Part shown: one piece after another, positions 1-4,797 of the stretch
Numbering within the stretch: the stretch's first letter is position 1
Layout of the letters: every line of letters begins with the position of its first letter
Source of the DNA: Escherichia coli
Lineage (GTDB): Bacteria > Pseudomonadota > Gammaproteobacteria > Enterobacterales > Enterobacteriaceae
NCBI RefSeq assembly: GCF_001677475.2
Contig: NZ_CP015229.1
Reading direction: 5' to 3' (one strand)
Length of the DNA: 64,000 nucleotides
Program-made: the position numbers and the translations under genes
The notes under the pieces: generated by a model
Database searches by the model: none
The model's input: only the letters and a program-made list of their open reading frames with translations
Told to the model about the DNA's origin: nothing

Positions 1-212
1 CGGTTCCCCGCTTCTTTGATTTCCAGCTCTTGCACCAGGTGTGCTTCGAGCATCTCACGGACAATTTTAGTGATACTGGCAGGAGCCAGTTGCGCCAGAC
101 GGGAAAGATCGATACGCGAGACTGGACCAAGCTGATCAATCAGGCGATATACCGCGCCCGCGTTGGTCTGCTTTATTTGATCAATGTGCCCAGGCTGGTT
201 TTCAGCAACCAC
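1..212 (-). CDS. mlc: ROK-family repressor Mlc (DgsA), N-terminal ~70 codons only; gene continues beyond window start
   Basis: Own reverse-complement translation of 1-212 gives MVAENQPGHIDQIKQTNAGAVYRLIDQLGPVSRIDLSRLAQLAPASITKIVREMLEAHLVQELEIKEAGNR from a GTG at 210-212; absent from ORF track because truncated; position upstream of ynfL fits synteny. Confidence 0.8.
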   Translation of the reverse strand, partial: MVAENQPGHIDQIKQTNAGAVYRLIDQLGPVSRIDLSRLAQLAPASITKIVREMLEAHLVQELEIKEAGN

Positions 213-346
213 CGCATACTCCCTATATTTTCGCGCTCCGAAATAATCTGTAGGCTATGGTGAAGCACTTCAATACGTGTCGTCAAATTTTTACTTAGGC
301 ATGTGATTAACAGCACATTTTTCGGGCTTTTTCGCTGAAATTTCCC

Positions 347-1240
347 TCACCTGAGAGCATTCAGCAGATGAATACGAAAGTTTCGCGCAGCTGGACTTTG
401 TTCATGATGTTTCGGCCAGACCAACCACATTTCAGAAACCGCATCCTCTTCAGCAATCGGCACCCAGCGCATTTCGTTGAGCTGAACACGTTTAAATGAC
501 GCAGGCAAAATTGAAACACCCAGACCGGCGGAAACCAGACCGATGATGGTCATAGCCTCACCCACCTCCTGAGTGATGACGGGCGTCAAATGGTAACGTC
601 GCATCAGTCCGAGAATATCGTCATACAGCCCTGTCCCTACGTGCGGATCAAAAAAGACAAAGGGTTCTTTCGCCAGTTCAGCCAGCGTTACATTCGGGTT
701 ATTTGCCAGGGGATGATCGTGCGGGATCATCGCCATAAGCGGTTCATGGACGATGACTGCGTGTTCAAGCGTCTCCGGTAACGCTGTGTTACGCAGCAAT
801 CCCATATCCAGCGTTCCTTCAATGAGCGGGGCGATTTGCTCGCGAGTGTTCATTTCGCGGGTTTGTAAATGGACATCAGGATAATCACGGCGAAACAGCG
901 ATAACGTATCAGACACCGCCCGAATAAAAGGAGCGGACGAAGTAAAACCAATACGCAACTCCCCCGCTTCACCCTGATGCAGTCTTTCCGCTCGAGCGGC
1001 AGCGTCATCCACCATAGACAGGATTTGCCGACTATCTGCAAGAAACTGTTTTCCTGCTGCTGTCAGCAATACACTGCGATTGGTTCGTGCCAGCAGTCGG
1101 GCACCAATTTGTTGCTCCAGCGCTTGAATCTGCTGACTTAGCGGCGGTTGCGAAATATTCAGGCGGGCAGCGGCGCGCCCGAAATGCAGCTCTTCCGCAA
1201 CAGCAACAAAGTAACGCAGATGACGAAGTTCAATATTCAT
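347..1240 (-). CDS. ynfL: LysR-family transcriptional regulator
   Basis: ORF track 297 aa; N-terminal LysR HTH (MNIELRHLRYFVAVAEELHFGRAAARLNISQPPLSQQIQALE); divergent from MFS transporter. Confidence 0.9.
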   Translation of the reverse strand: MNIELRHLRYFVAVAEELHFGRAAARLNISQPPLSQQIQALEQQIGARLLARTNRSVLLTAAGKQFLADSRQILSMVDDAAARAERLHQGEAGELRIGFTSSAPFIRAVSDTLSLFRRDYPDVHLQTREMNTREQIAPLIEGTLDMGLLRNTALPETLEHAVIVHEPLMAMIPHDHPLANNPNVTLAELAKEPFVFFDPHVGTGLYDDILGLMRRYHLTPVITQEVGEAMTIIGLVSAGLGVSILPASFKRVQLNEMRWVPIAEEDAVSEMWLVWPKHHEQSPAARNFRIHLLNALR

Positions 1241-1346
1241 ATTTAAAACATCTTATTTGAGATTATTAATATATTAGACAGAACAATTCGATTTTCCTAC
1301 CCTATGTATAAGCCTGATCCACAGGCATATTTAGCAAGGATTTCAA

Positions 1347-2600
1347 GTGAGCCGTACTACAACTGTTGATGGCGCTCCGGCAAGCGACACTGACAAGCAA
1401 AGCATTTCTCAGCCAAATCAATTTATTAAACGCGGTACGCCGCAATTTATGCGCGTCACCCTGGCGCTGTTCTCTGCCGGACTGGCAACCTTTGCACTTC
1501 TCTATTGTGTGCAGCCTATCCTTCCGGTGCTTTCGCAGGAGTTTGGCTTAACGCCCGCGAACAGTAGTATTTCACTGTCCATTTCCACGGCGATGTTGGC
1601 TATCGGTTTGCTGTTTACTGGCCCGCTATCCGATGCCATTGGGCGCAAACCAGTGATGGTAACGGCGCTACTGTTGGCCTCCATTTGTACGTTACTTTCG
1701 ACAATGATGACCAGCTGGCACGGCATTTTGATTATGCGCGCCTTGATTGGGCTTTCGTTAAGTGGCGTGGCTGCTGTTGGCATGACTTATCTTAGCGAGG
1801 AAATCCACCCCAGTTTCGTGGCCTTTTCGATGGGGTTGTATATCAGCGGCAACTCAATTGGCGGCATGAGCGGACGCTTAATTAGTGGTGTCTTCACGGA
1901 CTTTTTCAACTGGCGAATTGCTCTGGCGGCAATCGGTTGTTTCGCGCTAGCCTCGGCGTTGATGTTCTGGAAAATCCTCCCGGAATCACGCCATTTTCGC
2001 CCGACTTCGCTGAGACCTAAGACGTTGTTTATCAACTTTCGTCTGCACTGGCGTGACCGGGGATTACCGTTATTGTTCGCAGAAGGCTTTTTGCTGATGG
2101 GGTCGTTCGTCACGCTGTTTAATTACATCGGCTATCGGTTGATGCTCTCCCCCTGGCATGTCAGTCAGGCCGTGGTTGGCTTATTATCGCTGGCCTATTT
2201 GACCGGTACATGGAGCTCACCCAAAGCCGGAACCATGACCACCCGCTATGGGCGCGGTCCAGTGATGTTGTTTTCGACGGGGGTTATGCTGTTTGGTTTA
2301 CTGATGACCTTATTTAGCTCGCTGTGGCTGATCTTTGCCGGAATGTTACTCTTCTCAGCCGGGTTCTTCGCAGCCCACTCAGTAGCCAGCAGCTGGATCG
2401 GCCCCCGCGCAAAACGCGCTAAAGGCCAGGCCTCCTCGCTGTATCTGTTCAGTTACTATCTGGGGTCGAGTATTGCCGGGACGCTGGGTGGTGTTTTCTG
2501 GCATAACTATGGCTGGAACGGCGTCGGCGCATTTATTGCTCTGATGCTGGTCATTGCTCTGCTGGTCGGGACGCGTTTGCATCGTCGTCTGCACGCCTGA
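1347..2600 (+). CDS. ynfM: MFS-family inner membrane transporter
   Basis: ORF track 417 aa, GTG start, multiple hydrophobic TM segments. Confidence 0.9.
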   Translation: MSRTTTVDGAPASDTDKQSISQPNQFIKRGTPQFMRVTLALFSAGLATFALLYCVQPILPVLSQEFGLTPANSSISLSISTAMLAIGLLFTGPLSDAIGRKPVMVTALLLASICTLLSTMMTSWHGILIMRALIGLSLSGVAAVGMTYLSEEIHPSFVAFSMGLYISGNSIGGMSGRLISGVFTDFFNWRIALAAIGCFALASALMFWKILPESRHFRPTSLRPKTLFINFRLHWRDRGLPLLFAEGFLLMGSFVTLFNYIGYRLMLSPWHVSQAVVGLLSLAYLTGTWSSPKAGTMTTRYGRGPVMLFSTGVMLFGLLMTLFSSLWLIFAGMLLFSAGFFAAHSVASSWIGPRAKRAKGQASSLYLFSYYLGSSIAGTLGGVFWHNYGWNGVGAFIALMLVIALLVGTRLHRRLHA

Positions 2601-2603
2601 AAA

Positions 2604-2641
2604 ATAAGTCCGGACTGCGGTAAATACCCATCCGGACTTAT
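2604..2641 (+). terminator. Perfect 11-bp inverted repeat (ATAAGTCCGGA / TCCGGACTTAT) just after ynfM stop; weak T-tract
   Basis: Read directly from sequence; only two T after stem so rho-independent function is uncertain. Confidence 0.35.
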
Positions 2642-2906
2642 TGCCTGCTCAAACCAACGTTAATAGCCATCCTAAAATAGACGAAGCGCCAGCCAATTCC
2701 CGCAGCGCATCTAGCGTCATCAGGATTATAAGTACCCAAATAAACGGATTCATTTTGCTGTGTGTCATTTATTACTGATGCGCAGTTATTCTACCGCTTT
2801 GTAAGTAGTAAAATAGTTAACCCGATCAAGACTACTATTATTGGTAGCTAAATTTCCCTTAAGTCACAATGCGTTATTATCAATGCTGTAATTTATTCAG
2901 CATTTG

Positions 2907-2920
2907 TACATATCGTTACA
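2907..2920 (+). promoter_or_regulatory. RstA box (TACATATCGTTACA, fits TACATNTNGTTACA) in asr promoter
   Basis: Exact match to the published RstA-box consensus ~100 bp upstream of asr start; asr is a known RstA/PhoB-dependent acid-induced gene. Confidence 0.6.
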
Positions 2921-3023
2921 CGCTGAAACCAACCACTCACGGAAGTCTGCCATTCCCAAAGATATAGTTATTTCAACGGCCCCGCAGTGGGGTTAAATGA
3001 AAAAACAAATTGAGGGTATGACA

Positions 3024-3332
3024 ATGAAAAAAGTATTAGCTCTGGTTGTTGCCGCTGCTATGGGTCTGTCTTCTGCCGCCTTTGCTGCAGAGACTGCGAC
3101 CACTCCTGCTCCGACTGCGACGACCACCAAAGCAGCGCCTGCGAAAACCACACATCATAAAAAACAGCATAAAGCAGCACCTGCCCAGAAAGCGCAGGCG
3201 GCTAAAAAGCATCATAAAAATGCGAAAGCTGAACAGAAAGCCCCTGAACAAAAAGCGCAGGCAGCGAAGAAACACGCCAGGAAACACAGCCATCAGCAAC
3301 CGACAAAACCTGCTGCACAACCCGCAGCGTAA
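3024..3332 (+). CDS. asr: Acid shock protein Asr (periplasmic, low-complexity Ala/Lys/His/Gln-rich)
   Basis: ORF track 2997..3332; likely true start is internal ATG giving [21 protein letters not shown] signal peptide, 102 aa. Confidence 0.85.
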
Positions 3333-3424
3333 GTTTTCAACAGTAATGCTGGCGCGCCCCCTCGCGCCTGAAAATTACGGTGCTAAGCGGGTAACGTTTA
3401 GCACCGCCTTTAGCGGAGGGTAGT

Positions 3425-3508
3425 ATGGTGGGCCGTTATCGCTTTGAGTTCATTCTTATCATCCTTATTTTATGCGCACTGATTGCCGCCCGTTTTTATC
3501 TTTCCTGA
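3425..3508 (+). CDS. ydgU: 27-aa small hydrophobic membrane protein (MVGRYRFEFILIILILCALIAARFYLS)
   Basis: Own translation; GGAGGG Shine-Dalgarno 5-10 nt upstream of ATG; matches known E. coli small protein YdgU; below ORF-track length cut-off. Confidence 0.7.
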   Translation: MVGRYRFEFILIILILCALIAARFYLS

Positions 3509-3607: not shown

Positions 3608-4429
3608 ATGCGTACAACCATTGCTGTAGTGTTGGGTGCAATTAGTTTGACGTCTGCTTTTGTGTTTGCAGATAAACCAGACGTTGCCAAATCGGCAAAC
3701 GATGAGGTCAGCACCCTGTTTTTTGGTCATGATGATCGTGTGCCAGTGAATGACACGACCCAATCACCGTGGGATGCGGTTGGGCAACTGGAAACGGCCA
3801 GCGGCAATTTATGTACGGCGACGCTGATTGCACCCAATCTGGCATTAACAGCAGGACACTGTTTATTGACGCCGCCTAAGGGTAAAGCCGATAAAGCGGT
3901 GGCGCTGCGTTTTGTGTCAAATAAAGGTCTTTGGCGCTATGAGATCCACGACATAGAAGGCCGCGTTGATCCGACACTGGGAAAGCGGTTAAAAGCAGAT
4001 GGGGATGGTTGGATTGTTCCTCCCGCAGCTGCGCCGTGGGACTTCGGTTTGATTGTGCTACGTAATCCCCCTTCTGGCATTACACCGTTGCCGTTATTTG
4101 AGGGAGATAAAGCCGCGCTTACCGCCGCATTAAAATCGGCTGGTCGTAAAGTCACTCAGGCGGGATACCCAGAAGATCATCTCGATACGTTGTACAGTCA
4201 TCAAAACTGTGAAGTGACTGGCTGGGCGCAAACGTCGGTAATGTCACATCAGTGCGATACCTTGCCGGGTGACAGCGGTTCGCCTCTGATGTTGCATACC
4301 GATAACGGCTGGCAATTAATTGGGGTACAAAGTTCGGCTCCTGCTGCGAAAGATCGCTGGCGCGCCGATAATCGGGCCATTTCTGTTACCGGTTTTCGTG
4401 ACAAGCTGGATCAACTGTCACAAAAATAA
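3608..4429 (+). CDS. ydgD: Secreted trypsin-like serine peptidase (S1 family; TAGHC His motif, GDSGSP Ser motif)
   Basis: ORF track 273 aa with signal peptide and catalytic-triad motifs. Confidence 0.85.
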
Positions 4430-4467
4430 TGTTCAAACGCTGCCCGACAGCGCGGGCAGCGTGTTCA

Positions 4468-4797
4468 TCAGGCAAGTTTCACCATGATCATTCCAGCCAA
4501 CAGCAAGACCAGGCCAATCCAGCCTTTACGATTTAACCGTTGACCAAACAAGATCCAACCTGCGGCTAACGTGGCGGCAATACCAAACCCGCCCCACAAT
4601 GCATAAGCGACAGACAAGTCGATCCCTTTAACGGCCTGAGAAAGCGCACTAAAGGCAGCCAGCACCGCTGCCAGGGAGAGCAAGCCAAATATTTTGCGAC
4701 GAAAGCCGTCAGAAAATTTCAAAAAGACGTTAGCAACGATTTCCAGCACGATTGCCAATGCCAGCCAGGCGGCGTGAACCCATTCAAACTGCGCCAT
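4468..4797 (-). CDS. mdtI: SMR-family spermidine exporter subunit MdtI
   Basis: ORF track 109 aa, four TM helices, overlaps mdtJ by 14 nt. Confidence 0.9.

Follow-up and report, generated by a model that had tools for sequence, protein, structure and literature searches.

The divergent ynfL (husR)–ynfM gene pair of Escherichia coli: a conserved candidate operator and a proposed link between carboxylate sensing and dicarboxylate export

Introduction

The divergent genes ynfL (also husR) and ynfM of Escherichia coli, which encode a LysR-type transcriptional regulator and a transporter of the major facilitator superfamily (MFS), have a described counterpart in Salmonella and apparently one in Acinetobacter baumannii, and they are analysed here in a stretch of 64,000 nucleotides of contig NZ_CP015229.1 (the window), where they occupy positions 347 to 2600. 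YnfM is the founding member of TCDB family 2.A.1.36, and a range of substrates has been reported for it and its relatives. During carbon starvation, deletion of ynfM abolished extracellular glutarate, the export of which was blocked by carbonyl cyanide m-chlorophenylhydrazone (CCCP), and the export of D-2-hydroxyglutarate was down by 46% in the ΔynfM mutant. The deletion also raised an intracellular arabinose read-out, and a role in arabinose efflux was adopted by TCDB and by a study using chromatin immunoprecipitation with exonuclease treatment (ChIP-exo) (PMC8464067). Overexpression of ynfM boosted the export of anthocyanin but was toxic. The Salmonella orthologue was described as a copper importer, CuiT, a Corynebacterium YnfM was employed as a glutarate exporter, and A. 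baumannii SxtP/SxtR is reported to affect sulfamethoxazole/trimethoprim susceptibility and virulence. In one RefSeq record, annotated by the PGAP pipeline, the products are named "multidrug efflux MFS transporter YnfM/SxtP(Kp)" and "multidrug efflux transcriptional activator YnfL/SxtR(Kp)". The initial annotation of the window had called both the ligand and the transported substrate uncharacterised; this holds for the ligand of YnfL but not for the substrate of YnfM, for which these reports of export or import exist.

That the regulator controls its divergent neighbour, as the initial annotation had supposed, is borne out by published data from ChIP-exo, genomic systematic evolution of ligands by exponential enrichment (gSELEX), electrophoretic mobility shift assays (EMSA) and reverse transcription-quantitative PCR (RT-qPCR). 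Working with cells grown in glucose M9 minimal medium, Gao et al. (2021) classed YnfL by ChIP-exo as a single-target regulator with its sole genomic site between ynfL and ynfM, and their supplement places this site at coordinate 1,667,694 with a signal/noise ratio of 23 and with RNA polymerase also bound (PMC8464067). Since ynfM starts at 1,667,723 in the same numbering, the site lies 29 bp upstream of the gene, at ~1318 in the window. Kobayashi et al. (2026) renamed YnfL HusR, recovered nine gSELEX loci including the ynfL/ynfM spacer, and confirmed binding by EMSA (PMC12844172). In the same study, and in stationary phase only, ynfM mRNA measured by RT-qPCR was >5-fold higher and husR-promoter activity ~8-fold higher in the wild type than in ΔhusR, and positive autoregulation of YnfL was reported (PMC12844172). 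The published binding (PMC8464067; PMC12844172) thus contradicts the absence of YnfL from the spacer, the finding that would have spoken against the supposed control. A Salmonella ynfM-lacZ fusion was activated by σS. RNA-seq data for a ΔynfL strain were sought in the 2021 supplement, in which the expression tables cover other regulators only. Control of ynfM by PdhR, which was predicted by others, was rejected, as their own chromatin immunoprecipitation was negative.

The locus is the known E. coli ynfL (husR)–ynfM pair and no new kind of system, and the link between the regulator and its neighbour was previously published. The pair is textbook material with an existing annotation, and little turns on it. 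The additions made here are modest: the probable operator and promoter are located, the published motif is criticised, and a hypothesis on the ligand class is put forward. The reading that we favour, and hold to be probable though by no means secure, is that YnfL is a LysR-type activator of a divergent MFS exporter that acts from an operator at ~1247–1287, and that the sensing of a carboxylate by YnfL drives dicarboxylate export in stationary phase.

A conserved candidate operator and ynfM promoter in the spacer

The coordinates of the open reading frames (ORFs) give a spacer of exactly 106 bp between the divergent genes, in agreement with the shared region of roughly that length noted in the initial annotation.

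347..1240, minus strand: ynfL (husR; b1595 in MG1655), a LysR-type transcriptional regulator of 297 aa with an ATG start, from the ORF list
1241..1346: the divergent control region, 106 bp between ynfL and ynfM
1347..2600, plus strand: ynfM (b1596 in K-12), an MFS transporter of 417 aa with a GTG start, TCDB 2.A.1.36.1

Per-column identities were compiled over 74 distinct aligned Enterobacteriaceae spacers, and the following elements were proposed.

1247–1287: conserved block, candidate operator from spacer conservation, with a near-invariant core at 1255–1287
1252–1266: best candidate LysR-type dyad, AT[C]AT-N5-AT[T]AT, containing T1253-N11-A1265 and centred at 1259; putative binding element
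1267–1276: perfect 10-bp palindrome TAATATATTA, with an even-centred dyad score of 4.99/5 over the 74 sequences and columns invariant or nearly so
1275–1280, plus strand: −35-like hexamer TAGACA, 73–74/74 at each position; putative promoter element
1293–1303, plus strand: second conserved block TTTYMTACYCT, containing the −10-like TACCCT at 1298–1303; putative promoter element
1336–1340, plus strand: Shine-Dalgarno sequence AAGGA of ynfM, a conserved island inside an otherwise unconserved leader

The columns from 1255 to 1287 were invariant or nearly invariant (most at 73–74/74), while those from 1304 to 1335 were essentially unconstrained, with conservation resuming at the Shine-Dalgarno sequence and the start codon. 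The GTG start of ynfM is supported by the conservation of AAGGA together with the alternation of GTG and TTG at the same column across species.

The initial annotation had proposed a search for a T-N11-A LysR motif. Run over the window, this search gave 3,816 matches against 3,892 expected, with ~15 in the AT-rich spacer, and was uninformative by itself. In the symmetry profile of the 74 sequences the best 5-N5-5 dyad was the one centred at 1259, with a mean of 3.62/5 symmetric pairs, and T1253-N11-A1265 was present in 74/74. A perfect dyad, ATCAT-N5-ATGAT, was found at the equivalent place of the orthologous locus L089 from an unclassified gammaproteobacterium.

The same layout was observed in diverged lineages that had been sampled independently of the motif, and consisted of a left box AAAnnTATC, followed after ~21–22 bp by ATATATT(A/G)GA(C/A)A, 17 bp and TAnnnT. 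It was seen in K. pneumoniae, at the Salmonella CuiT locus, at L089 (YnfL 55% identity), in Paraburkholderia (40%) and in A. baumannii (36%). The 17-bp spacing between TAGACA and TACCCT was kept even in A. baumannii, and each of the six diverged lineages had a −10 hexamer that fits TAnnnT (TACCCT, TATGCT, TATCCT, TAATTT). Locus L092, where a YnfM homologue adjoins an unrelated LysR regulator (27% identity), has a different dyad and none of the YnfL-type elements, and it was therefore concluded that the DNA element tracks YnfL orthology. A position weight matrix (PWM) of the operator block was unique within the window, scoring 63 bits compared with −25 for the next best position. On this comparative evidence the operator is most likely the conserved block at ~1247–1287.

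With +1 taken as ~1310, the block would span roughly −63 to −23 of a weak ynfM promoter, and the best T-N11-A dyad would be centred near −51. It is in a span such as this that the recognition and activation sites of LysR regulators usually lie. The TACCCT at 1298–1303 resembles a σS-type −10, and with so poor a −10 the ynfM promoter would need both the activator and stationary-phase conditions. The left end of the block is 7 bp away from the start codon of ynfL, so that the block must also overlap the promoter or leader of that gene, and this overlap fits the reported autoregulation.

Other signals in and around the spacer were sought with little return. With permissive thresholds, Rfam returned no RNA family in 1–3500, the one match (E = 0.5, inside ynfL) being attributable to chance, and a repeat finder applied to the spacer gave just one 8-nt chance direct repeat. 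A leader hairpin at 1312–1326 was discarded, being neither significant (z = −0.86) nor conserved.

Ligand class of YnfL

The closest relatives of YnfL with solved structures were the itaconate sensor ItcR (7W06–08; E = 1.3e-57), BenM/CatM and RipR (E = 5e-31). The effectors of BenM/CatM are cis,cis-muconate and benzoate, and those of RipR are isocitrate and 3-phenylpropionate. Residues T100, S102 and R150 of YnfL align with RipR T98, S100 and R148, which were described in the RipR paper as the contacts for the ligand carboxylate. Among 84 orthologues, distant ones included, T100, R150 and L205 were invariant and position 102 was occupied by either S or T. YnfL therefore groups, by alignment, with the carboxylate-sensing regulators and keeps the carboxylate-anchoring residues, and its ligand is most likely a carboxylate metabolite.

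The published HusR box and the number of targets

The 2026 paper proposed a 16-bp "HusR box", CnGnnnAnnTnnnCnG, derived with MEME from 500-bp segments (PMC12844172). The strict consensus matched the window 12 times, compared with 14.9 ± 4.1 times in shuffled sequences, and none of the matches fell in the spacer at 1241–1346. The instance published for this locus is as follows.

1512–1527, plus strand: CAGCCTATCCTTCCGG, the HusR box given for this locus in the 2026 paper; it lies within the coding sequence of ynfM, 166 bp in, and was not accepted as the operator

As this instance is missing from the list of strict matches, it fails the printed consensus. The HusR box was rejected as the ynfL/ynfM operator owing to its chance-level frequency, the lack of a match in the spacer and the intragenic position of the cited instance.

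The other eight gSELEX loci were taken from MG1655 and scanned with the block PWM, the null being the best score per 2-kb chunk of the window. The best full-block score was 57.5 bits for the ynfL/ynfM spacer and 3.7–14.2 bits for the other eight loci, compared with up to ~14 bits for the null. Since the other loci score at the null level, the conserved operator was deduced to exist at ynfL/ynfM only, which agrees with the single ChIP-exo target. This suggests that the other eight loci are low-affinity or in-vitro sites, although the growth in glucose M9 used for ChIP-exo could have led to stationary-phase occupancy at these loci being missed.

The 2021 ChIP-exo dataset holds an additional peak at 1,668,287–1,668,334 (old numbering; window ~1911-1958), with a signal/noise ratio of 10.8 and ynfM as the nearest gene. 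It belongs to the long site list of another candidate regulator and overlaps 1910–1925, one of the two places where the HusR consensus is matched by chance.

Proposed role and rival explanations

In the favoured reading, the export of C4–C5 dicarboxylates by YnfM, glutarate and D-2-hydroxyglutarate among them, would be coupled to protons, YnfL would sense a carboxylate metabolite and activate ynfM, and the pair would act as an overflow valve in starvation or stationary phase. A carboxylate-sensing activator of a dicarboxylate exporter was considered the most coherent interpretation because the export of glutarate and D-2-hydroxyglutarate, the activation in stationary phase and the σS dependence fit together.

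Several points weigh against this reading. The operator is deduced from conservation rather than from footprinting or mutagenesis, the half-sites are not resolved in the AT-rich DNA, and some of the conservation must be due not to contacts with YnfL but to the −35 element and to the promoter or leader of ynfL. The ynfM transcription start site (~1310) is likewise a predicted position, and the ChIP-exo coordinate of ~1318 falls ~30 bp to the right of the conserved block. A simple σ70 promoter scan called no promoter in the spacer; the −10 has just 3/6 consensus bases, which accounts for the silence of the scan, and the promoter was therefore deduced from conservation instead. Positive autoregulation is atypical for LysR regulators. 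In the effector domain, pocket residues differ from those of RipR (L202→T203, P226→G227). Finally, rival transport roles have been reported for YnfM (copper import, arabinose, anthocyanin and drug efflux), and the eight further binding loci and the hydroxyurea phenotype are unexplained by a pure exporter valve (PMC12844172).

The last of these points lies at the centre of an alternative in which YnfL, as HusR, acts via CnGnnnAnnTnnnCnG on many genes for DNA repair and the supply of DNA precursors (rusA, nrdAB, xapA, iraD and others), with ynfM as one of nine targets. The nine gSELEX loci, the positive EMSA on seven probes, the >5-fold differences in stationary-phase mRNA, and the hydroxyurea and nitrogen-starvation phenotypes of ΔhusR (PMC12844172) all speak for such a regulon. 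In vivo, however, ChIP-exo found the ynfL/ynfM site only (PMC8464067), albeit in glucose M9, where sites occupied in stationary phase alone could have been missed, and the mRNA effects could be indirect. The motif data add that the strict consensus is no more frequent in the 64 kb than expected (12 vs 14.9) and never occurs in the spacer, that the cited ynfL/ynfM instance lies 166 bp inside ynfM and does not match the printed consensus, and that none of the other eight loci has the conserved operator. On balance the regulon was considered unlikely, if worth some weight. A similarly small chance was given to the proposal that YnfM is a copper importer (CuiT) and that the pair serves metal homeostasis. 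Deletion of Salmonella STM1486 lowers intracellular Cu and slows its uptake, and the Salmonella and E. coli loci share neighbours, the LysR partner and the operator, from which it follows that STM1486 and YnfM are true orthologues. Nevertheless, the Cu evidence comes from that orthologue rather than from E. coli YnfM, for which the direct data favour dicarboxylate export, and the LysR partner falls within a clade of carboxylate sensors and keeps the carboxylate-anchoring Ser/Arg. An MFS carrier of organic anions could also alter the Cu content indirectly, for example by carrying a Cu–carboxylate complex.

A drug-efflux system of the SxtR/SxtP type, serving intrinsic antibiotic resistance, would account for the way in which the one RefSeq record names the two products, as YnfM/SxtP(Kp) and as YnfL/SxtR(Kp). 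It would also be in line with the reported effect of A. baumannii SxtP/SxtR on sulfamethoxazole/trimethoprim susceptibility and with the operator elements shared by an A. baumannii LysR/MFS pair (36% / 42% identity). This explanation was judged quite improbable, since overexpression in E. coli is toxic and sensitises to acriflavine instead of protecting, ΔhusR showed no change in sensitivity to nalidixic acid, acriflavine or rifampicin (PMC12844172), and the A. baumannii locus compared here (L082) is only a candidate for the published SxtR/SxtP locus. The remaining proposal, an arabinose efflux pump controlled by YnfL, draws on the higher apparent intracellular arabinose signal in ΔynfM and on the adoption of this role by TCDB and the ChIP-exo paper. 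As the signal is an indirect reporter read-out common to 13 unrelated transporters, and toxicity precluded the overexpression test, this was deemed very unlikely. The copper, drug and arabinose reports remain as rivals that the dicarboxylate reading leaves unexplained.

The favoured reading of a carboxylate-sensing activator and a dicarboxylate exporter can be extended to a bolder version, which we regard as doubtful. In this version YnfL would be dedicated to sensing a C4–C5 dicarboxylate of the glutarate / 2-hydroxyglutarate type and would have one physiological operator. The valve would be ancient, its operator being conserved across Enterobacteriaceae, Acinetobacter and Burkholderiaceae; in-vitro artefacts would explain the HusR box and the majority of the eight additional gSELEX targets, and the effects on copper and drugs would follow from the transport of organic anions.

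The analysis provides concrete candidates for the operator and promoter (1252–1283, 1298–1303) of a regulator whose published motif appears to be wrong, and it reconciles the conflict between ChIP-exo (one target) and gSELEX (nine) in favour of the single conserved site. The shortlist of dicarboxylate ligands could turn YnfL and PynfM into a biosensor, and the dicarboxylate reading could help to explain how copper, drug, sugar and dicarboxylate roles came to be given to one family across species.

Annotation and conservation of the gene pair

YnfL has the features of a LysR-type transcriptional regulator, namely an N-terminal winged helix-turn-helix, a C-terminal effector domain resembling periplasmic binding proteins and a length of ~300 aa. 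The Pfam domains were HTH_1 (PF00126) at residues 5–64 (E 5.3e-24) and LysR_substrate (PF03466) at residues 88–296 (E 2.8e-48). YnfM matched MFS_1 (PF07690, E 1.1e-42) and contains MFS motif A (G-x-x-x-D-x-x-G-R-K, in the loop between transmembrane helices 2 and 3) as GPLSDAIGRK from residue 92. In a crude hydropathy scan of YnfM the peaks overlapped, so that transmembrane helices could not be reliably counted (twelve are expected for the family). NCBIfam gave no model above cut-off for either protein, and a PDB search with YnfM gave no close solved structure, the matches to transcription activator-like effectors being spurious as they had no significant stretch.

The ynfL–ynfM stretch was found by megablast in 5,420 of 5,426 complete E. 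coli genomes, where the genes are annotated as ynfL and ynfM and flanked by mlc and asr. MG1655 has the same two genes, likewise 106 bp apart, with mlc upstream and asr downstream. Relative to K-12, the DNA is 98.47% identical, the YnfM protein is identical, YnfL has one change (S157T) and the spacer has one base change (at 1320). As the DNA is only ~98.5% identical to that of K-12, the window represents a different E. coli lineage. The codon changes were 15 synonymous and 1 non-synonymous in ynfL and 17 and 0 in ynfM, and this synonymous excess indicates that both genes are under strong purifying selection; a functional difference between this pair and that of K-12 is not expected. None of the complete RefSeq E. 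coli genomes was above 98.7% identity across window positions 1-3400, and the lineage may be Shigella or a rare clade of E. coli. A YnfM that is 99.8% identical to that of the window is encoded by CP088587.1, a 32.5-kb GenBank entry described there as a plasmid of E. coli.

The orthologue sample comprised 80 Enterobacteriaceae loci, each from a different species, and the YnfM proteins they encode were of 83–99% identity. The divergent LysR gene was kept in 79 of them, the single exception being cut by a contig end, and spacer length ranged from 92 to 220 bp across the sampled loci. The divergent arrangement is far beyond chance.

Lineage-specific leader elements and the region 3′ of ynfM

In many genera other than Escherichia, the ynfM leader contains an extra element of ~20 bp, GTGGTCATACCCGTCACCAG…ATCACGGGG, located ~40–90 bp upstream of the start. 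It was found at the sampled loci L018-L034, L039, L049, L051, L052, L056 and L059, which are from Enterobacter, Leclercia, Lelliottia and others, and has a GntR/PdhR-like TGGTnnnACC core together with an inverted repeat, whereas Escherichia has only the short non-significant hairpin at 1312–1326. The element may be the site of a second, lineage-specific regulator.

Directly after the ynfM stop codon, a strong hairpin at 2603-2642 (−22 kcal/mol, z = −6.3) has 11-bp perfect arms at 2604–2614 and 2631–2641 and was missed by a simple terminator scan. With its T-run at 2598–2603, towards the minus-strand side, the hairpin looks like a terminator that serves a convergent small ORF or works in both directions. 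This small ORF at 2649-2768 is on the minus strand, convergent with ynfM, and encodes a hydrophobic peptide of 39 aa, MTHSKMNPFIWVLIILMTLDALRELAGASSILGWLLTLV. In some RefSeq records of E. coli and K. pneumoniae this position carries the annotation "KPN_01571 family protein", while the MG1655 annotation is empty between ynfM and asr.

Comparison with distant homologues and known systems

A word-indexed homologue search was of no use for distant sampling, its best 120 matches all being close relatives. In eight distant representatives, a divergent LysR neighbour was present in two, only one of which had a YnfL orthologue. The LysR gene is co-directional with and upstream of a YnfM-family transporter in Brevibacillus and on the Prescottella equi virulence plasmid, and many YnfM homologues have no LysR neighbour at all. 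On the Prescottella equi plasmid pVAPB1413 (L088, 1484-3814), the LysR gene is followed by a co-directional YnfM-family MFS gene (36% identity), vapJ and a response regulator. We take this cluster to be the virR–icgA operon, in which case IcgA would belong to the YnfM family of transporters.

Three further settings of YnfM homologues were observed. A paralogue of 35% identity occurs widely among the IncF plasmids of Klebsiella (L087 and a further 57 plasmid records from K. pneumoniae), where it adjoins genes for an IS630-family transposase, a leuC/leuD-like dehydratase and fumarylacetoacetate-hydrolase-family proteins; this may be a mobile cluster for organic-acid utilisation. At L089 (GCA_028598745.1), a gene with an Enterotoxin_a / pertussis-S1-like ADP-ribosyltransferase domain lies directly downstream of the ynfM orthologue (3833-4597). 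At L090 and L091, from a 509-kb record, a homologue of 49% identity without a LysR partner lies between dapF and an S-adenosylmethionine-dependent methyltransferase gene, near cyaY and hemC; this looks like a reduced, endosymbiont-type genome in which the transporter was kept and the regulator lost.

Of the described systems, ItcR, RipR and BenM/CatM are the best solved-structure matches to YnfL and have carboxylate-binding Thr, Ser and Arg residues that are conserved in it, but they control catabolic operons rather than an exporter, and the remaining pocket residues of YnfL differ. The Corynebacterium glutamicum YnfM has the same family name and was employed as a glutarate/succinate exporter, although it is a distant homologue of the E. 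coli protein. A. baumannii SxtR/SxtP is likewise a divergent pair of a LysR activator and an MFS pump. At L082, a candidate for its locus (36% / 42% identity), the spacer contains AAACATATC, then after ~22 bp ATATATTAGA, a 17-bp spacer and a TAnnnT −10, and ynfL–ynfM is apparently orthologous to this type of pair. It differs in that SxtR/SxtP is reported as a determinant of sulfamethoxazole/trimethoprim susceptibility and virulence. Salmonella enterica CuiT (STM1486) and its LysR neighbour form an orthologous pair, with YnfM 91% identical and with the same synteny and operator/promoter layout; in this case the difference is one of described function, CuiT being a copper importer and E. coli YnfM a dicarboxylate exporter.

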